A DNA stretch of 64,000 bases from sequence record MK295204, one strand, 5' to 3'. The notes beneath the pieces are model-generated. The model made no database searches and was not told the origin of the DNA. It saw only the letters and a program-made list of their open reading frames with translations. The stretch comes from Shigella phage vB_SdyM_006. Both the position numbers and the translations under genes were made by a program. The stretch's first letter is position 1, and the number at the start of each line of letters is the position of its first letter. Shown in pieces: positions 2,967 through 64,000 of this stretch.

Positions 2967-3011
2967 TTTTCTTATCAATAACGACTAAAAATAATCGTTA
3001 TTAATCAGAAT

Positions 3012-3088
3012 TGGTACACACTACTGGATTCGAACCAGTGACCTACGGTTTAGAAGACCGTTGCTCTATCCATCTGAGCTAAGCATGC
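3012..3088 (-). tRNA. tRNA-Arg (anticodon UCU)
   Basis: D-stem GCTC/GAGC, anticodon stem ACGGT/ACCGT with loop CTTCTAA, T-loop TTCGAAT, CCA encoded; three G-U pairs in acceptor stem. Confidence 0.75.
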
Positions 3089-3089
3089 A

Positions 3090-3380
3090 TTATAAGTACT
3101 GTTTAATCAGTTCTTCGTTATTTTTAAAAAGAATAAAAATATTATCACGAACTTCAGTATCTGAGATATGCCATTTCATAGCATCAATTAAAATGTCTTT
3201 TGGGATCATATTATATAAATTATTTAGTAAAGCAATATTATTTATATCAATATCAACTTCAAATAATTCAAAAATACAACACGAAATAGAATCATAAAAA
3301 TCTTTAATGTCTATTTCATACTTAGACAAATTATTTATAAATTCTGTTTTAGCTTGTTCTGGATTATGTGCTTTAAACAT
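3090..3380 (-). CDS. hypothetical protein
   Basis: ORF in track, same strand as neighbours, no recognisable motif. Confidence 0.45.
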   Translation of the reverse strand: MFKAHNPEQAKTEFINNLSKYEIDIKDFYDSISCCIFELFEVDIDINNIALLNNLYNMIPKDILIDAMKWHISDTEVRDNIFILFKNNEELIKQYL

Positions 3381-3402
3381 TTTTATTCCTATTATTCTAA
3401 AA

Positions 3403-3477
3403 TGGCAGGCTCTGTAGGAATCGAACCCACGTCTTCGGATTTGGAATCCGGTATTCTACCGACTGAACTAAGAACCT
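3403..3477 (-). tRNA. tRNA-Trp (anticodon CCA)
   Basis: Acceptor AGGTTCT/AGAGCCT, anticodon loop TTCCAAA, T-loop TTCGATT, CCA encoded. Confidence 0.75.
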
Positions 3478-3478
3478 T

Positions 3479-3562
3479 TGGCGGGCAGTGTAGGATTCGA
3501 ACCTACGTCGTCAAATGACACGGATTAACAGTCCGCTGCTTAATCCACTCAGCCAACTACCC
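3479..3562 (-). tRNA. tRNA with GUU (Asn) anticodon but type-II architecture (13-nt variable arm)
   Basis: Acceptor GGGTAGT/ACTGCCC, discriminator G, 3-bp D-stem, anticodon stem GCGGA/TCCGT with loop CTGTTAA, variable-arm hairpin GTCATTTGAC, CCA encoded. Confidence 0.6.
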
Positions 3563-3898
3563 AATAATTTTTGCATCTTCTGAATAACTAGAAATACTAC
3601 CCCATTCTGAAGTATTAAATGAAACTTTATTTCCGTTTTTGAACTCTATAACTATATTTATATTGTCAACAGAAATCTCATTATCAGATGATTCTCTTTC
3701 TGAGGTTTTTAAATATGTATCCATAGTTTCAATAGTCACTTCTTCTGTTTGAAGAAGAGGTGAATAGTACTCAGCTAAATAAACTTTATTTACAATATCA
3801 CCAAAAATAGTTTTAGCAATATCAGTTAATTTAGTTGTTTCTTTTAATAAATGTTTCATAATATGTCCTTCACATGGAGTAGAAATTAATAATAACAC
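3557..3898 (-). CDS. hypothetical protein
   Basis: ORF in track; 3' end abuts tRNA. Confidence 0.45.
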   Translation of the reverse strand: MLLLISTPCEGHIMKHLLKETTKLTDIAKTIFGDIVNKVYLAEYYSPLLQTEEVTIETMDTYLKTSERESSDNEISVDNINIVIEFKNGNKVSFNTSEWGSISSYSEDAKIIG

Positions 3899-3922
3899 AA
3901 ATAATATGAAAGCATTTCTGTT

Positions 3923-4279
3923 TTAATATTTGTGTTTTGTTTTTCTAACTAATGTAACCTGAAAAGGTGTTTCCATACAATATGTATGGACAACAGAATC
4001 TTTGTCACGATTATGATAATATGGATAATAAGCTACACGATAACCTTCACGCGTAAATCCTAATAGAACGCCAACACTTAGTCCTTTACCGCCACCTATA
4101 GATGAGTAAGAGACAATATCACCAGGACTAATATGATTACCGATCATATCGTGTTTAGGTGTCCCTTGCGTCAACTTGTGGTGCATTTCGTATAGTTCAG
4201 GGTCTGTCTTTAAAATTTCAGAAAAACCTAATTGGTTCTCTGCCTTAAACAGAGAAAAAGCTTCTTGAATTGTCATCAC
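3923..4279 (-). CDS. hypothetical protein
   Basis: ORF in track; a 43-codon upstream ORF (4276..4406) overlaps its start in an ATGA arrangement. Confidence 0.5.
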   Translation of the reverse strand: MMTIQEAFSLFKAENQLGFSEILKTDPELYEMHHKLTQGTPKHDMIGNHISPGDIVSYSSIGGGKGLSVGVLLGFTREGYRVAYYPYYHNRDKDSVVHTYCMETPFQVTLVRKTKHKY

Positions 4280-4416
4280 CAGCCCTCGTCTTCGCGTTCT
4301 TGATAATTATAATAAGTATCACGTTCTTCGCCGTTAGATTCTTTTTTGGATTGATTTTCAAAAAAACGTTGTAGTTCTCTTGCTTCTCGGATTTCTTTTT
4401 CTGTCATAGTATATCC

Positions 4417-4791
4417 TTACTCTATCTCTTTATGATCGCCCACTTTATATTTTTCTAAAGCTTCATCTTTAGATTTAGCTTCAATTTCGTATAAAATAGG
4501 AGTGTACCATTCGCCACAAAAAACCGAATCGTTTGAGTCTATTAAATCAGCATGTTTATCAATATACTCTTTGATATCGTCTGGGCTATCTAAAAATTCT
4601 AGACACTCTTCTTCGTATCCAACCAATTCAATAAAATGTTCTAATACTGCAATATAGTATTTTTTATTAAGGTGACTAGTATTTAATCTAAATACTCTTC
4701 CTGTTGGAGGAACAACAGGTCGTATTTCCATAAGACCTTTATCAATCATTTCTTTAATGATTGGAAGATCTTGGATTTCTGGCCGTTGCAT
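4417..4791 (-). CDS. hypothetical protein
   Basis: ORF in track. Confidence 0.5.
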   Translation of the reverse strand: MQRPEIQDLPIIKEMIDKGLMEIRPVVPPTGRVFRLNTSHLNKKYYIAVLEHFIELVGYEEECLEFLDSPDDIKEYIDKHADLIDSNDSVFCGEWYTPILYEIEAKSKDEALEKYKVGDHKEIE

Positions 4792-6556: not shown

Positions 6557-7232
<676 letters not shown>

Positions 7233-7252
<20 letters not shown>

Positions 7253-7892
7253 GTTTTACCTTTTTTTGAAAAATTTCTAAAGAATCATTATTTTCAATAA
7301 CAATATCACCTTCTAAAATAGGGAGGTCTTGTTCAGTGATATGGTCATCATTTGTAATTGTATTTTTTTTAATATGGATAATTTTACCTTTATTGTTTCG
7401 AACAGTATCAATTTCATGTACTTGTCGACAATCAGTAATAATAACAACATGACTTCTAGGGATTAATTTATCAATGTAATTGAAAACCATATCTACCCAG
7501 TACATTTTATCCATGCTTACAACAATATCAGTTCCAAGGGTCTGTAGGAACTTTCGAATTGTAAATTCATTATTATTTATAATAGGGATTTCTGGTATAT
7601 CACCTTTAAGACCATGACTTTTTAAATATCGAATACAGCGAATCATATAATCTTCGAATTGTTCTTGTGTCATATTTAATTTATATTCGCGATCAATGCC
7701 ATGTCCGTCAAAGTCATCATAGGTCAATTCAAACCCATTATAGTTTTGCCAATTTATAGACAAAGTGAATTTTAGATAATCGGCAAAAGCCATAGTGTGT
7801 GAAGTAATATTATTTTCTTCACAAATATCTTCAATAAATTTAGCACATGTATCTTTTCCGGAACGTTTTTTACCGGTCAAACCAATAATCAT
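7233..7892 (-). CDS. 1: deoxynucleoside monophosphate kinase (gp1)
   Basis: P-loop GLTGKKRSGKDT at N-terminus; synteny 57A-1-3. Confidence 0.75.
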
Positions 7893-8490: not shown

Positions 8491-8656
8491 ATTAATTTAT
8501 TAAAAGTATAGTATATTCTATATAACTATTAAGTAATAAATTAATAACTATATGTTACTATTTCTAAAGAAATCTGGAGCTGCGCTCCAGAATTTTTATT
8601 ATTTTATTAAGTTCTTTATATATTATATATAACTATTAAGTAATAAATTAATAACT
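8491..8656. repeat. copy A of a ~166-bp element: two 31-bp direct repeats (8519-8549, 8626-8656) flanking a GC hairpin CTGGAGC-TGC-GCTCCAG (8574-8590); inverted copy at 53705-53871
   Basis: Direct comparison: reverse complement of 53705-53871 matches 8491-8656 except for the 3-nt hairpin loop. Confidence 0.9.
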
Positions 8657-8664
8657 GTACGTTA

Positions 8665-36361: not shown

Positions 36362-36984
36362 GTGAAATACTTTTAATCGAAGACTGGGGATTACCAGGTG
36401 AAACCTTAAACGGAACACCCTTAATTGAATCTTCAGAATCAGACGGCGCTCTTTATATTGAAGGTATTTTTATGCAGGCTGAAGTCGTTAATAGAAATAA
36501 ACGACTTTATCCTAAAAAAATCCTAGAACAAGCCGTAAGTAAGTACATAAAAGAACAAGTTAATTCTAAACAGGCTTTAGGCGAATTAAACCACCCACCA
36601 AGAGCTTCAGTTGATCCGATGCAAGCAGCGATTTTAATAGAAAAATTGTGGTGGGAAGGCAATAACGTGTATGGGAGAGCTAGAGTCATTGAAGGCGATT
36701 ACGGCCCAGGCGATAAGCTTGCTGCTAATATACGAGCTGGATGGATTCCAGGTGTAAGTTCTCGTGGCCTTGGTTCTTTAAAATCTTCTGGTAAAGGATA
36801 TAACGTTGTTCAAGAAGGTTATAGATTAACAGTAGGTGTAGACGTTGTATGGGGTCCTTCAGCACCAGATGCTATGGTTACTCCAAAAAGAATTCAGGAA
36901 TCTGTAGATATTCCTAAAAATATGGAAAATAGTGCTGACAAGGCATTTTCTTTATTATCACAGCGCTTAAAACAAGCGTTATAA
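36358..36984 (+). CDS. 21: prohead core protease gp21
   Basis: 208 aa (T4 212 aa), synteny between 68 and 22. Confidence 0.75.
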
Positions 36985-36987
36985 ATA
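36980..36987 (+). promoter_or_regulatory. T4-type late promoter TATAAATA (gene 22)
   Basis: Exact TATAAATA 30 nt upstream of gene 22 ATG. Confidence 0.55.
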
Positions 36988-37016
36988 ATTATGTAATTTA
37001 ACAACAGGACTTAAAA

Positions 37017-37811
37017 ATGCTTAAAGAATTCTTAATTGAAGAAGCACAGAAAATCAATGATGTTTCTGTAGCTCTAGATGGCATTTTCGAATCAGTTGAA
37101 TTGTCTGATGATGTAAAAGCCCAATTCAGCACTGTTTTCGAAAACGCAGTAAAAACTAATGCTATCAAATTAGCAGAAACCCATATCAATGACTTAACTG
37201 AAAAAGCTGATCAAAAAGAACTAGAGATTAAAGAATCTGTTCAAGCTGCTATAGAAACAGAAATGACCGAAAACATTTCTAAATTTATGGACCATGTATC
37301 AGAACAGTGGTTAGAAGAAAATAAATTAGCTGTGACTAATGGTATTAAAGCCGATTTATTTGAATCTATGTTCCAAAGTATTAAAACCGTAGTTATTGAC
37401 CATAATGTTATTCTTCCTGAAGAATCTGTGGATGTAGTCAAAGAAATGGAAGAAGAACTGGAAGAAAGTAAATCTGAAGTTGCTTCATTATTCGATAAAA
37501 CTGTATCTTTGCAAGAAAAAGTAAACACTCTTGAAAAAGAAAAAATTATCAAAGAAGAAACTCAAAATTTGACTGAATCACAAAAAGAAAAAGTTGCTTC
37601 TTTAATTGAAGGACTTGCTTATGGTGATAAGTTCAAAGATAATTTAGAAGCTATTGTTTCTATGGTGTCTAAAACTAATGAAGAAAAAGCACCTATTTCT
37701 GAAGCTATAAATACTACTGATGAGAGCGGTATCAACTATACCCCAGAAAATCCTGTCGTAAAAAACGACCCAATGAGTGTTTATACAGCTGCGGCTAAAA
37801 AAATCAATTAA
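37017..37811 (+). CDS. 22: prohead core scaffold protein gp22
   Basis: 264 aa, acidic coiled-coil (T4 269 aa), synteny. Confidence 0.75.
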   Translation: MLKEFLIEEAQKINDVSVALDGIFESVELSDDVKAQFSTVFENAVKTNAIKLAETHINDLTEKADQKELEIKESVQAAIETEMTENISKFMDHVSEQWLEENKLAVTNGIKADLFESMFQSIKTVVIDHNVILPEESVDVVKEMEEELEESKSEVASLFDKTVSLQEKVNTLEKEKIIKEETQNLTESQKEKVASLIEGLAYGDKFKDNLEAIVSMVSKTNEEKAPISEAINTTDESGINYTPENPVVKNDPMSVYTAAAKKIN

Positions 37812-40784: not shown

Positions 40785-40810
40785 TGGGAACTTCGGTTCC
40801 CTTTTTATTA
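40785..40810 (+). terminator. intrinsic terminator (GGGAAC-TTCG-GTTCCC + TTTTT)
   Basis: Hairpin plus T-run after gp24. Confidence 0.6.
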
Positions 40811-41371
40811 GAAAAAATCATCTAATGTAAACTCTTTATATCCTATCATTTCTTTGAATTCGCACATCACTATTGGGTTATATAAATTATAAGTCTTTAT
40901 CCCTAAATAACGTGCTAGATAAACAGCTGTTCTTGTCCCTCCAGAAACATTCCCATATTTATCCTCAGGTGCCCAAAATATAACTGAATCAACAGGATTT
41001 TCTAAAGTAGGTGTTAATATTTGCATACAATTTCTACATTGAAGATGTTTAACAGTTTTAGAAACACTGTCTAATTTAGGATAAAATCTTCTTATAATAT
41101 TAGCGGCTTTTTCTTGGATTTCGTCATTAAAGTCTGTAAATATATGAACACCATTCCCAGAATAGTGATTATTGAACCCCTGGTGAGGAATAATAACACA
41201 TTTATTTTCAGATGAGTATTTCTTCATAAACAAATAATCACTCCCAGGCGCTCCTCCTGATGTTCCTAGCACTCCTAAATTAGAAATATATTCTCCACCA
41301 CTTATTAAAATATTAGATAAACGACTTGGTATTTTTCTTGACCCTATTAAAGCTACAGAATTTTTAACCAT
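40808..41371 (-). CDS. Rossmann-fold protein, possibly DprA/LOG/SLOG-like
   Basis: Weak motif resemblance (ALIGSRK...; GTSGGAPGSD; VSGGTRTAV); unverified. Confidence 0.35.
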   Translation of the reverse strand: MVKNSVALIGSRKIPSRLSNILISGGEYISNLGVLGTSGGAPGSDYLFMKKYSSENKCVIIPHQGFNNHYSGNGVHIFTDFNDEIQEKAANIIRRFYPKLDSVSKTVKHLQCRNCMQILTPTLENPVDSVIFWAPEDKYGNVSGGTRTAVYLARYLGIKTYNLYNPIVMCEFKEMIGYKEFTLDDFF

Positions 41372-41383
41372 GCTAACCTCAAA

Positions 41384-41404
41384 AAGGACCCGAAGGTCCT
41401 TTAA
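41384..41404 (-). terminator. intrinsic terminator on minus strand (GGACC-CGAA-GGTCC; T-run on minus)
   Basis: Hairpin followed by TTTTTGAG on minus strand. Confidence 0.5.
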
Positions 41405-41405
41405 T

Positions 41406-41561
41406 TTATTGTAAAGCTAAAATTAAACCCACAATAATAAACCATAACACAAACCCAATCCATAATGGTGATAACACCCATAGCCAAGACCAAGCAATGA
41501 CACCAACTAGTTTTAAAACAATAAACACAATACCTAGTACACCCAAAAATCCAATTTTCAT
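41406..41561 (-). CDS. small hydrophobic membrane protein (51 aa)
   Basis: Untracked ORF MKIGFLGVLGIVFIVLKLVGVIAWSWLWVLSPLWIGFVLWFIIVGLILALQ; followed by a terminator. Confidence 0.3.
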   Translation of the reverse strand: MKIGFLGVLGIVFIVLKLVGVIAWSWLWVLSPLWIGFVLWFIIVGLILALQ

Positions 41562-41562
41562 A

Positions 41563-41808
41563 TTACCAACCTGTTATTTGTATTATATTAGAATCAAATT
41601 GGGTTCTTTTAACAGTTAACCCTTCGTTTTGTAATTTTGTAATAACTTTCTCTTGGACTCGGTATGAGATTTCACCTAGAGTCCAAGTTAAACTATCATA
41701 CCCATGTTTAGATTTAAGCATTAATCGCTTTGCAATATCATTAAACACCTGTTTAGATTCAAGCTCAACTAAGCTATCTTTAGAATCTTTTAATTTATCA
41801 ATAAACAT
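41563..41808 (-). CDS. hypothetical protein
   Basis: ORF in track. Confidence 0.45.
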   Translation of the reverse strand: MFIDKLKDSKDSLVELESKQVFNDIAKRLMLKSKHGYDSLTWTLGEISYRVQEKVITKLQNEGLTVKRTQFDSNIIQITGW

Positions 41809-41815
41809 AATAAAC

Positions 41816-42820
41816 CTATTTTGTAATTAAATTGACCCAATCTTTTCGAATGAATTCTTGTATTTCTTTTTGAATAGATTTCTTGATTAATGCTGGGTCA
41901 TCGTAATCAAGAATATCATGCCCGTCTTTTAACATATCTTTTAAAACATCCTGCATCATTAGACCTTGAACTTTGCCAAAATCTTTTGAAGATATTTCGC
42001 CAACATGGCTAATCACATTAGATAAACGTTGTGCAGTGATATATGATGTAGAAAAATTAACCAGTTCTTGGTCGTCATTTGATAATTCTGGTGTAGGTCT
42101 AATTGTTTTTACTTTACCAGTTTCTTTGAACTTAGCATTTTTACATTTAAAAATTACACGGCTTTTATTATTGAACTGTGTTGGAGTAATAGGTTTAAGA
42201 ACATAACCTTCTGCAATATTTTCTGAACCTTCTTTTTGAGGACCAAATACGTGGGCATTTGCAGCCGGAATACCATGTTCTTTTACTATTGCATTAAATT
42301 CTGGGATTAAAGAATCAAATGAACGCTCTAAATTACTTAATTCATCAAAGTCACCAGTTAAAATAACAGGGCAGATTTTAAGATTTGTTTTAGAAGATAA
42401 CATTCTTAAAAATAAAGCATCTACTAAATCACCATTAATTAAAATATCAAATACCCAGAAATCTTTTTCTTCGTAATCTACTTCTCGTTGAATACCAGGG
42501 CCTGCATATTCGCCAAAGACTGTTAAAAGTTCTAAGTCAGGCATTGATTCTTTAACAGTATTAAACATGTCAAGAATGTTTTGTTTATAACGCTTTAAGA
42601 TTAATTCGTATCCAAAAAATGCTTCAGATTCACCAATAAGATTAGTTCGTTTTGCACAAACAACATCTACACCATCACAAATAAAACTAAAATTAGTCCC
42701 ATGTATTTTTTCTTGGGCAATCCAAGGAATACCTGGTGCTGTTTTTCCTTCAAAAAAGGCCTTTTCTACTAATTTAGTGTTATCAATATTTTCAATAGAA
42801 TCATATTTAATAAATTGCAT
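41816..42820 (-). CDS. rnlB: RNA ligase 2 (RnlB)
   Basis: 334 aa, identical length to T4 Rnl2; adenylation motif KIHGTNFS; further blocks match remembered T4 Rnl2 (FGE.AGPGIQ, EGYVLKP, DFGKV.GL..QD). Confidence 0.9.
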   Translation of the reverse strand: MQFIKYDSIENIDNTKLVEKAFFEGKTAPGIPWIAQEKIHGTNFSFICDGVDVVCAKRTNLIGESEAFFGYELILKRYKQNILDMFNTVKESMPDLELLTVFGEYAGPGIQREVDYEEKDFWVFDILINGDLVDALFLRMLSSKTNLKICPVILTGDFDELSNLERSFDSLIPEFNAIVKEHGIPAANAHVFGPQKEGSENIAEGYVLKPITPTQFNNKSRVIFKCKNAKFKETGKVKTIRPTPELSNDDQELVNFSTSYITAQRLSNVISHVGEISSKDFGKVQGLMMQDVLKDMLKDGHDILDYDDPALIKKSIQKEIQEFIRKDWVNLITK

Positions 42821-43156
42821 TTATACCTCAAACAATCGTATTTTAAGACTAGTTGTATATTTGATTTCTAAATTATAAACTTTACCACTATAAACAACAA
42901 GAATTTTATTTGGGTTTTCTTCACACCACATTATATTATCGTCATTAATAATGTTTAAAAATTCTAGCTCTGAATAACAAGCCCACGAGAATGATTTACT
43001 TAAAAACTCTTTTAAATCAAGCCAATCGGTTTCGTCACAAATAGCAGGACTCATAACAGCAAGTTTGTGGGTATATGTTTCTTTATCACACCAACGAGTA
43101 AAAAACACTTCACGTTTTTCTTCTAAAGGAATAACACCAGCAGTATACCAAGACAT
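42821..43156 (-). CDS. hypothetical protein
   Basis: ORF in track; C-terminal segment similar to that of the next ORF. Confidence 0.45.
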   Translation of the reverse strand: MSWYTAGVIPLEEKREVFFTRWCDKETYTHKLAVMSPAICDETDWLDLKEFLSKSFSWACYSELEFLNIINDDNIMWCEENPNKILVVYSGKVYNLEIKYTTSLKIRLFEV

Positions 43157-43165
43157 AATAATTCC

Positions 43166-43450
43166 TTATTTGATTGGGATGATTCTAAATTTGTATTCAC
43201 CGCCACGAGTAAATTTAACTTCTAACTGAGTTGATTCACCAATGTAAAGAACCAAAATTGAATTTTTATTAGAACGTAACCAGTCTTGATATTCTTCAAA
43301 AGACTTGCGTAAAGATGGGATGCTATTTTTATATCGGCCTAAAATAGTCCATGAGAATTCACCACTGCCCATCCATTTAGTGGAACGGTCATATTTTAAA
43401 AGGTTTTCAATATCAATATTTAACCATGTTTTAAAGTTTTCTTTAATCAT
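43166..43450 (-). CDS. hypothetical protein
   Basis: ORF in track; C-terminus ...ILVLYIGESTQLEVKF resembles ...ILVVYSGKVYNLEIKY of ORF 42821..43156. Confidence 0.45.
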   Translation of the reverse strand: MIKENFKTWLNIDIENLLKYDRSTKWMGSGEFSWTILGRYKNSIPSLRKSFEEYQDWLRSNKNSILVLYIGESTQLEVKFTRGGEYKFRIIPIK

Positions 43451-43650
43451 TTTCTTACCTTCATTCGTTTACGATAAACTACTTTTTCGCGAGTTTTAAA
43501 TTCCTTCTGTTTTTGTTCAACTTCAATATAAACAGAAGCCATTTCTTTAGCTGTTCCACCCATTTTTCTGGCTATATCAACAAAGTGCATACCTTGTTGT
43601 TTAAGAAAGTGGATTTTTATTTTATCATGATTTGTCATTATTTTCTTCAA
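43447..43650 (-). CDS. small basic protein with putative helix-turn-helix
   Basis: MHFVDIARKMGGTAKEMASVY resembles an HTH; basic C-terminus. Confidence 0.4.
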   Translation of the reverse strand: MKKIMTNHDKIKIHFLKQQGMHFVDIARKMGGTAKEMASVYIEVEQKQKEFKTREKVVYRKRMKVRK

Positions 43651-43831
43651 AATCTTTACAGATATCCAAGAGTTTTTTGTTTAAAGCTTCAACAAATTCT
43701 GTAGCTGAATCAGGGTATTCGTTAAATAAATAACACAAATACTCACTATGTATTTCATGGGCCACTTGAGAAACCATAGTCTTAAGTTCTTTATTCATAT
43801 AATCACCTCTCAATAATGTGTATTCTATCAT
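43625..43831 (-). CDS. hypothetical protein
   Basis: ORF in track. Confidence 0.4.
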   Translation of the reverse strand: MIEYTLLRGDYMNKELKTMVSQVAHEIHSEYLCYLFNEYPDSATEFVEALNKKLLDICKDFEENNDKS

Positions 43832-44237
43832 CTAAAATATCATTAAGCATAGGACCAATGACATCCCAATTTAAGCCACCATTAGAACACCCTGGTTTAG
43901 GCAGGAGAACTCTTTTAAAATTGTTATTAGATACTATCTCCATTAATTCTAATGCACTCTTACGTATCAGGTCTTTATCAGACTTGTTATACCAATCATG
44001 TTTAGTAGGAAATGATATTAAATTAATGTTATTATATTTCGTAAGAATTCTGCATACATGGCCGTATTGGATTAAGGATTTAGCCATGATTAAGTCTAAA
44101 TTAGGAACCTTCAACGAAAAGAGACGGGCAATTCCGGCTCCCATAACAGCTCTTTTATTTTTCTTGATATTCATGTTTGTTGTAATGCAAATAGCATCAC
44201 AAGGGATATCAAGAATATTTCCAGATACTATTTTCAT
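43803..44237 (-). CDS. putative macro-domain protein (ADP-ribose binding/hydrolase-like)
   Basis: Motif resemblance to macro domains: DAICITTNMN...AVMGAGIA and LLPKPGCSNGGL; unverified. Confidence 0.4.
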   Translation of the reverse strand: MKIVSGNILDIPCDAICITTNMNIKKNKRAVMGAGIARLFSLKVPNLDLIMAKSLIQYGHVCRILTKYNNINLISFPTKHDWYNKSDKDLIRKSALELMEIVSNNNFKRVLLPKPGCSNGGLNWDVIGPMLNDILDDRIHIIER

Positions 44238-44656
44238 AAAGCTTCTTTTAAAACTTCTATAGCATGCTTAATTTCAAAAGGGATACCTTCTGATGGATGC
44301 TGGCGAATGTTATCGTCAATATGACTAAAATCCATGCCAATTACACGGACTTTATATTTTTGCTCACTATCAAATTCTGATATATTAGAACCCCAAGTGT
44401 TTGATGATGTAACTTCTTTAGTCTCAAAATAAGTACATCCACAATGACAATATTCGTGCCAAAAATCACAGTCTTTATCAAATAAAGGGTGGTCTTCGCG
44501 AAGAGTTAAATATACCGCATAACTCCAATCCGGACGACCATCATTAAATAAAGCTTTATAACTAGGTGGTAATCCTGTAAACCATGAAGTAACTTCAATA
44601 GCTTCGCCTTTCTTTTTATCTGCATGAACAGTGTATACATATTTTTGAATAGACAT
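44234..44656 (-). CDS. hypothetical Cys/His-rich protein
   Basis: ORF in track; CDFWHEYCHCGC cluster suggests metal binding. Confidence 0.45.
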   Translation of the reverse strand: MSIQKYVYTVHADKKKGEAIEVTSWFTGLPPSYKALFNDGRPDWSYAVYLTLREDHPLFDKDCDFWHEYCHCGCTYFETKEVTSSNTWGSNISEFDSEQKYKVRVIGMDFSHIDDNIRQHPSEGIPFEIKHAIEVLKEAL

Positions 44657-44854
44657 TTATTTTACCTCAATAATAGTGAGTTCAGTATCTTCTGTCAAAT
44701 CACAAAAGTCAAAAGCCAATGCAGCAATACCTGGGTATTCTGATTCGTCAATAATACATTCAGTATTATTATTTTTGATGTCTAAGGCTAATTGATAATT
44801 AGACGTAGTAAATCCAAGTTCAAGTTCTTCGCACCATACGGTATACTTTTTCAT
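44657..44854 (-). CDS. hypothetical small protein (tandem paralogue 1)
   Basis: 65 aa; shares WCEE...GF.T..YQLA...ELT.IEVK pattern with the adjacent 64-aa ORF. Confidence 0.5.
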   Translation of the reverse strand: MKKYTVWCEELELGFTTSNYQLALDIKNNNTECIIDESEYPGIAALAFDFCDLTEDTELTIIEVK

Positions 44855-45049
44855 TTATTTTACCTCAATGAGTTCACAATCGTATAAACAACTACACAGT
44901 TCACAAAAAGAATAAGCCGATGCATATGAATCAGTGTCTATCCAAAACCCAAGATTATCAATAGCACCTTTACGAACTTCATAAGCAAGTTGATAATCAA
45001 CTGTTTCAAATCCAATTTTCTTTTCTTCGCACCATACTATATATTTCAT
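44855..45049 (-). CDS. hypothetical small protein (tandem paralogue 2)
   Basis: 64 aa; paralogue of 44657..44854. Confidence 0.5.
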   Translation of the reverse strand: MKYIVWCEEKKIGFETVDYQLAYEVRKGAIDNLGFWIDTDSYASAYSFCELCSCLYDCELIEVK

Positions 45050-45894
45050 GAGTATTCCTTGTCATAATAAGAATCTGGAGTAAAAATATTTAACATATTT
45101 GTAGAATTATCAATAGTAATAATATTTTCCTGTTCAACTTCAGGTGTATAATATTTTAAAAACTCTTCTTTAACGTATTTTACTGGATCACTTTTATAAT
45201 CGTCAGTAGAAATATCAAATAATTCAATTGTATACGTATCAAGCCATTTTTCAGAACATGTTAATCGTCCACATAATAATCCATCATAAACGATAGCATA
45301 TTCAATATGGCCCCATTTATATGAGCTATCAGCGTCGTGTCTGATTAGATAAAACTTAATATCAGAATTCTCACAATCATCACTAATATTGTCACGAACA
45401 TCGTATTCATTGAGCTCGGTCAATTCACTTAAAGCATTAATAAACAGGTTTTTATATTGAGGGCCAGTTACTAACTTATCTTCTGTTAGTTCTTTCTCAA
45501 TAAATTCTTTTAAAGTTAAAACTGGCAATTCATACTTAGGAAATAATGCAGTTTCAGTAATAGTGCCGATATTCAATTCGGCCAATTTCTTAATAACAGA
45601 ATCTTCAGCTTTATCAGAATCAGTCCAAATATGAAGAACTTTAAAATTATGATTATTCCAAATTTTTTGTGGGTCAACATCAATCACATCTTGGGTTTTA
45701 GACAAAAACATTAAAAGGTAATCAGAATCATTCCACCCTACTGGGTTTTCGTATTTTTGAATGACTAGATATTGGAAATCAGTCATTAATGCATTATATC
45801 TTTCTTTAGAAGCTAAAGAAGTAGAATCCATAGATGAAGAAAAAGCTTCAATAACACTAGCTGGGTTTTTAATTAACATTTTGAATAGTCCCAT
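45046..45894 (-). CDS. hypothetical protein
   Basis: 282-aa ORF in track, no recognised motif. Confidence 0.5.
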   Translation of the reverse strand: MGLFKMLIKNPASVIEAFSSSMDSTSLASKERYNALMTDFQYLVIQKYENPVGWNDSDYLLMFLSKTQDVIDVDPQKIWNNHNFKVLHIWTDSDKAEDSVIKKLAELNIGTITETALFPKYELPVLTLKEFIEKELTEDKLVTGPQYKNLFINALSELTELNEYDVRDNISDDCENSDIKFYLIRHDADSSYKWGHIEYAIVYDGLLCGRLTCSEKWLDTYTIELFDISTDDYKSDPVKYVKEEFLKYYTPEVEQENIITIDNSTNMLNIFTPDSYYDKEYS

Positions 45895-46115
45895 GTGATT
45901 TTAACACGATCATGATATATTACTCTATCATGGCTTTTTGAAACTGTAAATCCTTTTTCTTTAAGAATTTCAATCAACGCATCTTTAATGGCTTCATTTT
46001 CTGGAAGCTTTGCGTAATGCTCTGTACTATCATGCAAAGCCAGTTGGCAAATATCATTTAACACAATAGCTAAATTGTGTTCAACAACAGTATTTTTAAG
46101 ATCAGATAAATTCAT
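45873..46115 (-). CDS. hypothetical protein
   Basis: ORF in track. Confidence 0.4.
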   Translation of the reverse strand: MNLSDLKNTVVEHNLAIVLNDICQLALHDSTEHYAKLPENEAIKDALIEILKEKGFTVSKSHDRVIYHDRVKITWDYSKC

Positions 46116-46200
46116 ATTATTCTCACAGTTGCGAATTGATGATGTGTATACTATATTATAAAATAGTGTTTGTAAACATCTAAAATAATTTAAAATAAAT

Positions 46201-46229
46201 GTTTACTTTTGCTGTCATTATGATATTAT
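46201..46229 (+). promoter_or_regulatory. sigma70-like early-type promoter inside a repeated promoter-RBS-start cassette (-35 GTTTAC, 17 bp, TGa-TATTAT)
   Basis: Cassette tgtttacttttgctg...tattatatacatattgaaac...ggagtatattATG also occurs at 60771-60845 and 61096-61168 on the minus strand. Confidence 0.55.
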
Positions 46230-46271
46230 ATACATATTGAAACGAAACATGAAAAACAAATGGAGTATATT

Positions 46272-46616
46272 ATGAATAAGACACAAATCAATGCAGTTTT
46301 AAAAACTTTAGGTTATGGTAATTTACGTTATTCTAATGGTAAAACATACCGCAGAGGAAACTCTATGGTTAAAGGTTTTCATTTAATTTCTACTGGTGCA
46401 TGTATGGTGACTTCACCAGAAACACAAAAATTTAGTGATCTTGTTAATGAGTTAAAACAACATTTTGAATTACAATCATATTATGACAATTGCATGGCAA
46501 TATTTGTGACAGGAAAATTAAAAATTGTTGTTTGTTTAACAAATTTTAATACATACGGTGGCTTAAACCCAGATTATAAAACATGGTTTGCATCTGTTAA
46601 TATTGAAAAGTTATAA
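46272..46616 (+). CDS. hypothetical protein
   Basis: Start set at the cassette ATG (MNKTQ...) 8 nt after GGAG; lone plus-strand gene among minus-strand genes. Confidence 0.5.
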   Translation: MNKTQINAVLKTLGYGNLRYSNGKTYRRGNSMVKGFHLISTGACMVTSPETQKFSDLVNELKQHFELQSYYDNCMAIFVTGKLKIVVCLTNFNTYGGLNPDYKTWFASVNIEKL

Positions 46617-53697: not shown

Positions 53698-53704
53698 TTT
53701 ACTA

Positions 53705-53871
53705 TAGTTATTAATTTATTACTTAATAGTTATATATAATATATAAAGAACTTAATAAAATAATAAAAATTCTGGAGCTGCGCTCCAGATTTCTTTAGAA
53801 ATAGTAACATATAGTTATTAATTTATTACTTAATAGTTATATAGAATATACTATACTTTTAATAAATTAAT
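53705..53871. repeat. copy B (inverted) of the ~166-bp element; hairpin CTGGAGC-TGC-GCTCCAG at 53771-53787
   Basis: Reverse complement identical to 8491-8656 apart from the 3-nt hairpin loop. Confidence 0.9.
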
Positions 53872-58419: not shown

Positions 58420-60483
58420 TTAAATAATAAATTTTTCTGGGACAAAAGTAAGATCAACAGCTGTTGATAATAATTCTAGCCCTTTTTGACTAATTTTACC
58501 AGTATTTTCTTTTAAGAATTCTTTAAACCCAATTTTTTCGATTTTTCCTTCAGATAAAAACTTATTTCCGTCAATAAGTTCGCTTTCATCTAGTAATTCT
58601 GGATCCACTACAGATGTTTCTACTAATATTGGTCTATTAAATTCTATATCACGAGCGTTTTCATAACCGTGGATAGAATGAATCTTAAGAGCTAAACCTC
58701 TAGGTAAAATCACCTCGCATTCACTAGAGTATTTTGACATATTACCAGGAATAATAACATTGACTTTATGTGCACCTTTAATAGTTATACCCATAGAAAT
58801 GTTAATATCTGTTTTCTTAGTTGCTTTCTTACCATTAACGGCTACACCAATATTTTTTGGTGTCATAACTGTTGATATAACATCATCGAATGTTTCGGAT
58901 TCAAAAGTTACTGTAGTCGCGTTAGGTTTAATATTATCAAGAACATCATTTCGTTCCCCAAAAATAATTGGAGCTAATGAAGTCGAAATATAATTAGGAA
59001 AATATAATGTTTTATTTTTAGCAGCTTTTTCTACGTCGGCATAAGGTAATTTTTGTGCTCTATATAAAATAGTTCCTTTTTCTAACTTGGTTCCTTTTTT
59101 GAAGGCCCCATCTAAGACAGGAATTTTGTTTTCATACACAGATTTTAAACTTTTATCTTTACCAAGCAAAAAGTCGTTCATTTCTTCATATCCACGTAAA
59201 GCATAATCTGTGATAACTTTTCGCTCTTCTTCTGTTAAATCCATTTCTGTTTCGGTTCTAAATAACTCTTCTAAAGGAGTATAGAAAACATTTCTGTTTA
59301 AAGCAGAGATACAGCCTCTTAAAGCTCTAGTCTTAGCCACATTATCGTCAGGTCCATATGTTTCTAAATCTTCGGCTATTTTTTTGTAAACATCCATAGC
59401 ATTATTAGAAGTTTTGAGCGCATTGTTAATTATCAATATATACGGTTTTGCTAATTTATATTTTTCTTCACTAGATAAATGATAAAAATTTTCAACACCA
59501 TACCCAGATATGCGTTCTAAAGAATCTAATAAAAATCTAGCTTCTAGATCTGATTCTTCTTCACTCACGGCCGAATTTATTTTATCTAAAAACACAGATT
59601 TAGATTCATCAATTTTATTAAGGACATTTTTATGAACTAATGCAATTTTTGTAGAATCACTTTGGACAATAGGAGGATTATCTTGTAGTTCAATATATTT
59701 TCTTCTTCCTTCTTCAGAATAATTTTCTAAGTCTTCTGGTTTAGAAACACCATACATTGCTGATAATAATTCACGTCTAGAAACTTTAGTTTTTGAAATG
59801 ACAGATCGTTCACTTCTTGTGTTTTCTTGTGCTGCAATACTTCCTGCAATGGCTTCTAATTTAGACACTTGCTTGCCAGTTTTGTCATTGATATACACAT
59901 CACCTACTTTAGAATCGACTTTAGTATATAAGTCAGAATCAATACCAGGAATCCCAGCGATGTCTTCTAAAGGTCTGTTTTTACGATATATTAAAACATA
60001 AGCATGTTTACCTGTAAATTGATACAAATCTTCTAAGACAACAAATTTACCACCAGTACGTTGCATAGCCAGACGTTTGATTATTCTTTGTAATGTCTTT
60101 TCTTGGCCTTTCATTTTTTTAGCAGGGAATCTAAATAAAACTGCGTCCATTTTAAGTTTTTTAACTTGTTCGTATACAGTGTCAAAAATAGTATTCAATG
60201 CCCCAATAGGGTCTGAGCCTAAACCATTTCTTAATTCTGCTGCATTACCATTTTTAGACAAACTCATCAAAAACACTTGAACAAATTTATCACCTTGCTT
60301 TACTGCTTTTAATGCATCGCCTTTAGATAAATAAGACACCATTCTAACTAAAAGATTGTCATTTCCAGGAACACTGACATTCCATAATTGAGGGACCTTA
60401 GCCCTTTTATTAAGATTAATAGCTTTATATTGAGCTATTTCTGAATCAAAAACCTCATTTAAATTAATTTCATTTAATTCCAT
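58420..60483 (-). CDS. alt: ADP-ribosyltransferase Alt-like (capsid-packaged RNA polymerase modifier)
   Basis: 687 aa (T4 Alt 682 aa); C-terminal ART triad in order R (YRAQKL), S-T-S (YISTSLAP), E-x-E (SECEVILP); late promoter upstream. Confidence 0.75.
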   Translation of the reverse strand: MELNEINLNEVFDSEIAQYKAINLNKRAKVPQLWNVSVPGNDNLLVRMVSYLSKGDALKAVKQGDKFVQVFLMSLSKNGNAAELRNGLGSDPIGALNTIFDTVYEQVKKLKMDAVLFRFPAKKMKGQEKTLQRIIKRLAMQRTGGKFVVLEDLYQFTGKHAYVLIYRKNRPLEDIAGIPGIDSDLYTKVDSKVGDVYINDKTGKQVSKLEAIAGSIAAQENTRSERSVISKTKVSRRELLSAMYGVSKPEDLENYSEEGRRKYIELQDNPPIVQSDSTKIALVHKNVLNKIDESKSVFLDKINSAVSEEESDLEARFLLDSLERISGYGVENFYHLSSEEKYKLAKPYILIINNALKTSNNAMDVYKKIAEDLETYGPDDNVAKTRALRGCISALNRNVFYTPLEELFRTETEMDLTEEERKVITDYALRGYEEMNDFLLGKDKSLKSVYENKIPVLDGAFKKGTKLEKGTILYRAQKLPYADVEKAAKNKTLYFPNYISTSLAPIIFGERNDVLDNIKPNATTVTFESETFDDVISTVMTPKNIGVAVNGKKATKKTDINISMGITIKGAHKVNVIIPGNMSKYSSECEVILPRGLALKIHSIHGYENARDIEFNRPILVETSVVDPELLDESELIDGNKFLSEGKIEKIGFKEFLKENTGKISQKGLELLSTAVDLTFVPEKFII

Positions 60484-63883: not shown

Positions 63884-64000
63884 CTCACTTAAAAGTAATA
63901 GATTGGGTGATTTCAGCAGTTTTATCTAAAGTATACATTTCAACTTTACCAGTAGGATTTTTTGTTAAAAATGCTTCGATACTTTTATGTGCTGATTCTT
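63884..64000 (-). CDS. hypothetical protein, partial (C-terminal end only; runs off the window edge)
   Basis: Open minus-strand frame ending at stop 63884-63886 (...GKVEMYTLDKTAEITQSITFK*). Confidence 0.3.

Follow-up and report, generated by a model that had tools for sequence, protein, structure and literature searches.

The question raised by positions 43803–44237 of a 64,000-nucleotide stretch of Shigella phage vB_SdyM_006 (sequence record MK295204; the whole stretch is called the window below) is whether the small protein encoded there acts on ADP-ribose and, if so, on ADP-ribose of which origin. A sequence-only reading of this DNA had proposed a macro domain from the spacing of motifs, and had suggested that it reverses or senses ADP-ribosylation by host defence systems or by the phage's own Alt-type enzyme. 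We find that the product of this open reading frame (ORF), 144 amino acids (aa) long, is by its predicted structure a macrodomain, and we consider it probable that the protein serves against DarTG2 as an orphan DNA ADP-ribosylglycohydrolase of the DarG2 type, functionally an 'AdfM'. The gene, referred to below as the macro ORF, and the codons on which the argument turns are as follows.

43803–44237, minus strand: the macrodomain gene, an ATG-to-stop ORF of 144 aa, stand-alone and of the DarG2/TARG1 class.
44175–44177, minus strand: the codon of Asn21, equivalent to N22 of Thermus aquaticus DarG and N23 of PhiKZ AdfM.
43992–44003, minus strand: the codons of K79-H80-D81-W82 (FPTKHDW motif), with the equivalents of the catalytic Lys and the thymine-stacking Trp.
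43872–43892, minus strand: the codons of G116-C-S-N-G-G-L122, the ADP-ribose-grasping loop, which in DarG reads G117-A-G-N-G-G-L.
44154–44171, minus strand: the codons of a six-residue basic insertion, residues 23–28 (NIKKNK), directly after the active-site Asn.

The 144-aa ORF called by the sequence-only reading, which named no strand, was recovered on the minus strand, and the motifs it had quoted fall at residues 14–23 (DAICITTNMN), 30–37 (AVMGAGIA) and 111–122 (LLPKPGCSNGGL) of a basic protein (isoelectric point 9.4). The ATG overlaps the stop codon of the upstream 140-aa ORF (ATGA), and at its 3′ end the gene shares nucleotides with the beginning of the following ORF. Comparison with the orthologues of Proteus phages gave ratios of nonsynonymous to synonymous substitution rates (dN/dS) of 0.08–0.15 at dS values of up to 0.81, those against phages PM2 and Pm5461 being 0.11–0.15 at dS 0.67–0.81. 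The macro ORF is a genuine gene under purifying selection. A word-indexed search found 224 homologues at E ≤ 1e-3, and a profile made from 55 family sequences matched 12,249 representatives of 50%-identity clusters at E ≤ 1e-3, 7,440 at ≤ 1e-10 and 1,690 at ≤ 1e-30, most of the matched proteins being 140–170 aa long.

A second frame overlaps the gene on the opposite strand.

43816–44262, plus strand: antisense ORF of 148 aa, a 'putative membrane protein' in Pm5461.

We rejected this frame as a gene, its dN/dS of 0.25–0.37 being that expected of a shadow frame. Public annotation of the macrodomain gene varies between records. The region 42800–45100 is 94.9% identical to Proteus phage phiP4-3 (T4-like; Straboviridae, Bragavirus), in which the gene (7002–7432 of locus L001) is mis-annotated: RefSeq and UniProt (A0A2I6PFE9) hold a 46-aa C-terminal fragment that starts from Met99, and an unannotated gap lies upstream of it in the phiP4-3 records. 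The Pm5461 record (1488–1935 of locus L098) has the same 46-aa fragment together with the antisense 'putative membrane protein', and the PM2 RefSeq record has the full-length gene, labelled 'phosphatase'.

Assignment of the macro ORF product to the macrodomains falls just short in Pfam, in which the Macro model (PF01661) scored 21.5 bits (E 2.4e-4) and missed its gathering cutoff of 22 by 0.5 bit. The same model is carried by many homologues, many of which, at 40–47% identity, pass the cutoff, and phrog_335, labelled 'phosphatase', matched the macro ORF at 1.6e-25. An AlphaFold2 model made with the 55-sequence alignment as input had a mean predicted local distance difference test score (pLDDT) of 96.3 and a predicted template-modelling score (pTM) of 0.90. 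When this model was compared with the Protein Data Bank (PDB) by Foldseek, the first matches were the DarG macrodomains of T. aquaticus and Mycobacterium tuberculosis (TM score 0.81, E about 1e-10), followed by human TARG1 (TM 0.72–0.75), the Thermosipho africanus DarTG fusion, and then Poa1p, viral nsP3 and YmdB. There were 137 matches at E ≤ 1e-3, and each of the top 50 was either a macrodomain protein or a designed serine hydrolase with a macro scaffold. Macrodomain membership is settled by this predicted structure, which recovers the three-layer alpha/beta/alpha macro fold; the macro domain proposed from the letters is thus borne out by the Foldseek comparison suggested for it.

Within the macrodomains, the macro ORF is nearest to those of DarG2, with TARG1 second, in sequence, profile and structure comparisons. 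A phmmer search of PDB sequences ranked the DarG entries 5m31 (8.8e-7), 5m3i (1.1e-6) and 7omu (2e-6) ahead of TARG1 (0.06), and the family profile gave 1.6e-20, 6.1e-19 and 1.8e-15 for DarG entries and 3e-12 for TARG1, with no other PDB family below 0.01. The sole PADLOC match was DarG (1.5e-18, profile positions 3–135 of 329). The best NCBIfam match was antitoxin_DarG (6.2e-18, 65 bits against an equivalog cutoff of 250, positions 2–138 of 338), and the second was 'ADP-ribose-binding protein' (NF001666, 1.3e-4). In 81 of the darT loci that were compared (80 bacterial and two plasmid), the macro ORF matched the DarG2 gene of about 350 aa directly downstream of darT. The BLOSUM distance from the clade of the macro ORF was 0.79 for PhiKZ AdfM, 0.81 (median) for DarG2 and 0.87 for TARG1, and that from AdfM to DarG2 was 0.69.

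The likeness stops at the macro half of DarG2. The DarG profiles of PADLOC and NCBIfam match that half only, and the 144-aa protein has no DarT-binding C-terminal domain. No darT lies beside the gene, whose neighbours are small phage ORFs, and no DarT was found in the homologue contexts examined, which are phage-like. We also considered whether a neighbouring ORF might be a split-off DarG C-terminal domain and rejected this, no neighbour matching full-length DarG2 at E ≤ 10. Lacking a DarT-binding domain, a darT neighbour and a DarG2-like neighbour, the protein is therefore not the antitoxin of a DarTG2 operon but an orphan enzymatic half.

Asn21 is invariant across the 55 family members, as it is in the 77 DarG2 sequences that are not gapped there, and mutation of its equivalents, DarG N22 (PMC5179494) or AdfM N23 (PMC13309987), reduces de-ADP-ribosylation. 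Equally invariant (55 of 55 family members, 78 of 78 DarG2 sequences) is K79, which lies in an [FL]-x-T-K motif (here FPTK) at the position of DarG K80 and TARG1 K84. These are the catalytic lysines, and DarG W83 has been proposed to stack on the thymine (PMC5179494); in T. aquaticus DarG, K80A is inactive, N22A strongly impaired and W83A little affected in vitro (PMC5179494). The equivalent of W83 in the macro ORF is W82, a position held by Trp in 49 and by an aromatic residue in all of the 55 family members, by Trp in 78 of 78 DarG2 sequences, and by Ala in TARG1. The loop points the same way: its G116 and G120 are invariant and N119 is found in 46 of the 55, and the TARG1 loop, G-C-G-L-D-R-L, is unlike the N-G-G-L that the macro ORF, DarG and AdfM have in common. 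The basic insertion is present in 55 of 55 aligned family members with the consensus [VI][IV]KK[ND]G, and may contact nucleic acid. Because the lysine mechanism is common to DarG and TARG1, we infer substrate specificity from Trp82, the loop, the relatives and their domain fusions.

Of these relatives, two phage macrodomains that belong with the macro ORF to phrog_335 have been characterised. The first, gp104 of the chimallivirus PhiKZ, was named AdfM (anti-DarT factor macro) and is a DarG2-like macrodomain that stands alone (Morgan et al., Cell Rep 2026, PMC13309987). In vitro it strips the ADP-ribose added by DarT2 from an oligonucleotide, an activity impaired by N23A; it also relieves the toxicity of DarT2, and the phage depends on it to grow on hosts with DarTG2 (PMC13309987). 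The macro ORF is 29% identical to gp104 (E 2e-16), and the tblastn hit was confirmed as PHIKZ104, with the sequence given in PMC13309987. The second, T4 Tk.4, is a macrodomain also named AdfM; of the T4 genes, tk.4 alone was needed on a host with DarTG2, and its knockout sensitises T4 to DarTG2 (HIDEN-SEQ preprint, bioRxiv 10.1101/2025.11.20.689424). A DarG2-macro hidden Markov model (HMM) scored gp104 at 109 bits, the macro ORF at 59.7, TARG1 (partial sequence) at 44.0 and Tk.4 at 35.1, and PADLOC ranked these proteins in the same order. The pairwise match of the macro ORF to Tk.4 (E 2e-4) covers only 48 residues, and the two are apparently not orthologous.

Tk.4 (6926–7390 of locus L090) is the least DarG-like of the three phage macrodomains compared, with Gln in place of the catalytic Lys of DarG and Pro in place of the Trp. 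Its mechanism, if enzymatic, cannot be the DarG/TARG1 lysine mechanism. Phage records numbered 2,847 for the Tk.4 type (E limit 1e-3) versus 115 for the macro-ORF type (E limit 1e-5). Among T4-like phages, the latter occurs only in Bragavirus (Proteus) and Gualtarvirus (Providencia, Morganella); it is also found in N4-like, PhiKZ-like, Listeria, Vibrio, Aeromonas and Shewanella phages.

Longer relatives join the macrodomain to other domains. Ten proteins were scanned among 30 relatives of at least 200 aa. One (P0252) consists of DUF4326, Macro, NADAR and YpsA (SLOG), and another (P0282) of Macro, a DarT1-associated NADAR model below its cutoff (24.4 bits, cutoff 27) and YpsA. Three more were Macro with YpsA, one was DUF4326 with YAcAr and macro, and one joined Macro to a DNA polymerase III alpha finger/HhH region. 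The fusions to NADAR, which removes ADP-ribose from DNA bases, and to modules that handle DNA speak for a nucleic acid as substrate, and those to SLOG would still allow a role with a nucleotide ligand.

Taken together, these comparisons suggest that the macro ORF is probably an orphan DarG2-like DNA glycohydrolase directed at DarTG2. The reversal of host-defence ADP-ribosylation put forward in the sequence-only reading thereby finds support in homology, the candidate being DarT2, with its thymidine ADP-ribosylation of single-stranded DNA. In an infected host with DarTG2, freed DarT2 would ADP-ribosylate thymidines in single-stranded phage DNA, and this modification would block phage replication or packaging. 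The macro enzyme would bind the ADP-ribose in its pocket through Asn21 and the G116–L122 loop, Trp82 would stack on the modified base, and Lys79 would break the bond from ribose C1″ to thymine, leaving unmodified DNA. As the protein lacks the DarT-binding domain, its target would be the lesion rather than the toxin. Alongside the NADAR enzyme AdfN of its lineage, which is directed at the guanine-ADP-ribose of DarT1, it would provide cover against both DarT types.

AdfN (T4 gp30.3), an orphan NADAR of T4-like phages, removes DarT1 guanine-ADP-ribose from DNA but does not act against DarTG2 (Johannesman et al. 2025, PMC11825919). Most of the window is collinear with phiP4-3, in blocks of 97.8–99.1% identity, and being collinear and about 98% identical, phiP4-3 was taken as a proxy for the genome beyond the window. 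Its AdfN orthologue is gp061 (36625–37062 of locus L091; PF08010 at 1.9e-42, together with a NADAR match), about 650 bp beyond window position 64000, and it has exactly one macro gene, the counterpart of the macro ORF. This lineage thus has a NADAR as well as a DarG-type macrodomain. A Tk.4 orthologue in this lineage was sought and rejected: the vs/tk slot of phiP4-3 holds the unrelated gp238, and tblastn of Tk.4 found nothing else in phiP4-3 or the window. The pair mirrors AdfN and AdfM of T4 with an apparently non-orthologous macrodomain, which would fit functional replacement.

Several observations weigh against DarT2-modified DNA as the substrate. The conserved residues do not themselves fix it, since the lysine mechanism is common to TARG1. 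The clade is distinct from DarG2 as well as from PhiKZ AdfM and, at distances of 0.81 and 0.79, only modestly nearer to these than to TARG1 (0.87), in a comparison with no broad outgroup set behind it. Ser118 replaces the Gly that is invariant in DarG2 (the G119 position of DarG), and Ala34, found in 54 of 55 family members, stands at the position of DarG K29, which is Lys or Arg in 78 of 78 DarG2 sequences; K29E and G119E mutants of T. aquaticus DarG are impaired (PMC5179494). PhiKZ AdfM, however, is active with Ala at both positions. The insertion beside the active site is absent from 78 of 78 DarG2 sequences, from PhiKZ AdfM and from three crystallised DarG sequences. The SLOG and DUF4326 fusions would also fit processing of a soluble ADP-ribose-derived nucleotide, and a literature search found no experiment on any member of the clade. 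The distribution of DarT2 in hosts adds to these points. A tblastn search of plasmids with Pseudomonas aeruginosa DarT2 (80 records) had no Morganellaceae among the matches listed, and the best 80 of 233 relatives in a scan of a genome collection for DarT included no Proteus, Providencia or Morganella, the collection having one genome per species and the system being sporadic. The literature places DarT in Providencia rustigianii and, rarely, darT-darG in Morganella morganii; Providencia and Morganella are hosts of phages with a gene of the macro-ORF type.

The alternative that survives best is a general TARG1-like ADP-ribosylhydrolase with a substrate other than thymidine-ADP-ribose; it would protect against another ADP-ribosylating host toxin or dispose of products derived from NAD. 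TARG1 itself acts on protein Glu-ADP-ribose and O-acetyl-ADP-ribose, and the candidate substrates here would be protein Glu/Asp-ADP-ribose, phosphate- or base-linked RNA ADP-ribose (for example from CmdT-type mRNA transferases), O-acetyl-ADP-ribose and ADP-ribose-1″-phosphate. Such an enzyme would account for TARG1 being the next-best relative by structure and sequence, with the catalytic Lys in common, for a clade nearly as distant from DarG2 as from TARG1, and for an active site that departs from DarG2 at the K29 and G119 equivalents and has an insertion of its own. Public labels of relatives ('phosphatase', 'ADP-ribose binding protein', 'Poa1p-like') fit it as well, and an mRNA ADP-ribosylating defence against T-even phages exists (PMC11618068). 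Nevertheless, DarG is ahead of TARG1 in every comparison, Trp82 and the N-G-G-L loop match DarG and not TARG1, both tested phage macrodomains of the same PHROG act against DarTG2, and the NADAR fusions point to nucleic-acid lesions. We therefore regard a TARG1-like activity as unlikely.

The domain fusions direct attention to a further gene of the same strand.

40808–41371, minus strand: DprA-like/SLOG-fold gene of 187 aa, 2.4 kb downstream of the macro ORF (phrog_768, 9.1e-57; weak Pfam DNA_processg_A).

The protein shares 33% identity (E 5e-22) with the N-terminal domain of P0281, a metagenomic protein with a C-terminal domain of the macro-ORF family; a weaker match was to P0262. The P0281 fusion is a Rosetta-stone hint that the DprA-like and macro genes may work together, which makes the former a candidate partner. 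A resemblance to the DUF4326-macro fusions of metagenomic relatives was seen in Klebsiella phage Pylas, in which a DUF4326 protein (gp02, 1–272 of locus L096) lies about 3.7 kb upstream of the macro homologue gp18 (4001–4504) in the same early region.

From these associations a more speculative reading can be drawn, namely that the clade is a distinct phage 'ADP-ribose clean-up' module with a substrate other than the DarT2 thymidine adduct, and with the DprA-like protein as a nucleic-acid- or ligand-binding partner. The module would be marked by the invariant basic insertion and by recurrent SLOG (DprA-like, YpsA), DUF4326 and NADAR fusion or neighbourhood. Candidate substrates would be another ADP-ribosylated base or RNA lesion, made by an undescribed host transferase, or an ADP-ribose-derived immune signal linked through ribose C1″. 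We hold this to be a long shot. Alternatively, the protein might bind ADP-ribose or a derived immune signal without catalysis, as a sponge or sensor, or might open such a signal enzymatically, possibly in concert with the SLOG-fold protein encoded nearby. Macrodomains as a class bind ADP-ribose, and the relatives are repeatedly fused to SLOG-type domains (YpsA, YAcAr, DprA-like), which serve as nucleotide-ligand sensors in other conflict systems. Even so, a catalytic Lys and Asn that are invariant in 55 diverse members favour catalysis over mere binding, isomers of cyclic ADP-ribose are not known as macrodomain substrates, and the NADAR and DNA-polymerase fusions point to DNA, which makes a sponge or sensor very unlikely.

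The same window encodes an enzyme that could write ADP-ribose.

58420–60483: Alt-like ADP-ribosyltransferase of 687 aa (PF03496, ADPrib_exo_Tox, 1.7e-14).

Its phiP4-3 counterpart is annotated as an Alt-like RNA polymerase ADP-ribosyltransferase, and by this annotation and the PF03496 match the Alt-type enzyme reported here in the sequence-only reading is genuine. The pairing of a writer with an eraser is plausible, and the macro ORF might on this account erase or regulate the modification made by the phage's own ADP-ribosyltransferases (Alt-like and any Mod-type), tuning that of host RNA polymerase and other proteins. The tie to Alt is not supported: the two genes lie in different transcription blocks with 14 kb between them, and the distribution of the macro family does not track T4-like phages but extends to unrelated phage lineages, whose genomes were not screened for Alt. 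T4 has Alt without the macro-ORF type, and its different macrodomain, Tk.4, scores as an anti-DarTG2 factor. Alt, ModA and ModB are moreover arginine-specific, and N-glycosidic Arg-ADP-ribose is removed by ARH1/DraG-type enzymes; we know of no macrodomain that removes it. An eraser of Alt is accordingly highly improbable. Least credible of all is an ADP-ribose-1″-phosphate phosphatase of an RNA-repair pathway, for which one could cite an RNA ligase 2 gene (41816–42820) in the same strand block 1 kb downstream, the label 'phosphatase' given to the PHROG in some databases and the presence of Poa1p among the distant fold matches, but Poa1p ranks far below DarG and TARG1, phiP4-3 has no annotated 2′-phosphotransferase (Tpt1/KptA), the macro gene of N4-like phages is not near any RNA ligase, and T4-type repair by Pnk plus Rnl leaves no 2′-phosphate.

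The macro gene is one of a series of small ORFs, all on the same strand, that is flanked by the tail-tube/baseplate genes and by RNA ligase 2, and this whole block is syntenic in Providencia phage PSTRCR_127. The sequence-only reading had likened the cluster to anti-defence loci; all neighbours of the gene belong to PHROGs of unknown function. Two features bear on its expression.

44234–44656, minus strand: the upstream ORF of 140 aa, whose translation appears to be coupled to that of the macro gene; a conserved neighbour in Bragavirus and Gualtarvirus.
44670–44698, minus strand: candidate sigma-70-like promoter TTGACA-17-TATTAT (11/12), located within the small ORF that precedes the 140-aa ORF and the macro gene.

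The promoter is a weak candidate, because sigma-70-like matches in the region are not enriched over shuffled sequences (34 versus 29.7). The T4 late-promoter motif TATAAATA is absent from the coding strand of 41300–46300, and no MotA-box promoter was found upstream of the macro gene. In the N4-like phage Pylas, the macro homologue lies in the left-end early region. Early or middle expression of the macro gene is plausible.

Other properties of the window were recorded. The block holds paralogous pairs of small ORFs (44657–44854 and 44855–45049; 42821–43156 and 43166–43450; 45873–46115 and 41563–41808), of which two are tandem (phrog_21221; phrog_18468/19888) and the third (phrog_8208) brackets the ends of the block. 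The segments 1727–2596 and 2967–4031 had no BLASTN match (E ≤ 1e-20) to phiP4-3, adjoin its tRNA cluster and are probably indels or replacements in a variable region. A 169-nucleotide inverted repeat, 98% complementary, has its arms at 8491–8659 and 53703–53871, 45 kb apart. By the phiP4-3 annotation both arms are intergenic, one between a gp2-like end protector and a tail-completion gene and the other between a UvsY-like gene and a baseplate wedge gene.

If our preferred reading of the macro ORF as a DarTG2 counter is true, T4-like phages of Proteus, Providencia and Morganella neutralise DarTG2 by a DarG-type macrodomain that is apparently non-orthologous to Tk.4 and encoded at a different locus, and Straboviridae would have solved the same problem twice, each time beside the NADAR enzyme AdfN. 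The gene would be a candidate host-range determinant for phage therapy against Proteus and other Morganellaceae. The macro family is large and nearly all of its members are unannotated or called 'phosphatase'; being mis-annotated as a 46-aa fragment in phiP4-3 and Pm5461, the gene would escape annotation-based surveys of anti-defence genes. The macro-NADAR and macro-SLOG fusions are leads on how phages bundle ADP-ribose erasers.

Set against known systems, the macro ORF resembles DarG2, the antitoxin of DarTG2 (Jankevicius et al. 2016, PMC5179494; PDB 5m31, 5m3e, 5m3i and 7omu), in its macro fold (TM 0.81), catalytic Lys and Asn, Trp and glycine-rich loop, and differs from it in consisting of the N-terminal macro half alone, with 144 aa against about 350. 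TARG1 (OARD1, C6orf130; PDB 4j5r and 4j5s) belongs to the same macrodomain subclass with a catalytic lysine and is the second-best structural match. ICP1 AdfB was rejected as a relative, being a 77-aa direct binder of DarT with no macrodomain. AdfN has the strategy in common, that of an orphan copy of an antitoxin's enzymatic domain that cleans phage DNA, and an unrelated fold (NADAR). Tk.4 is likewise a stand-alone macrodomain of a T4-like phage, but its gene lies between vs and tk and that of the macro ORF near rnlB. PhiKZ gp104 is likewise a stand-alone protein of about 150 aa that lacks the DarT-binding domain and has the same Asn, Lys, Trp and C-x-N-G-G-L loop; it belongs to another clade, much nearer to DarG2 and without the six-residue basic insertion, and its host phage has a phage nucleus, unlike the T4-like phage that carries the macro ORF. 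The use of an orphan macrodomain to counter DarTG2 was thus already described in 2025–2026 for other phages, and the macro ORF is probably a further, partly mis-annotated member of this group of phage macrodomains.

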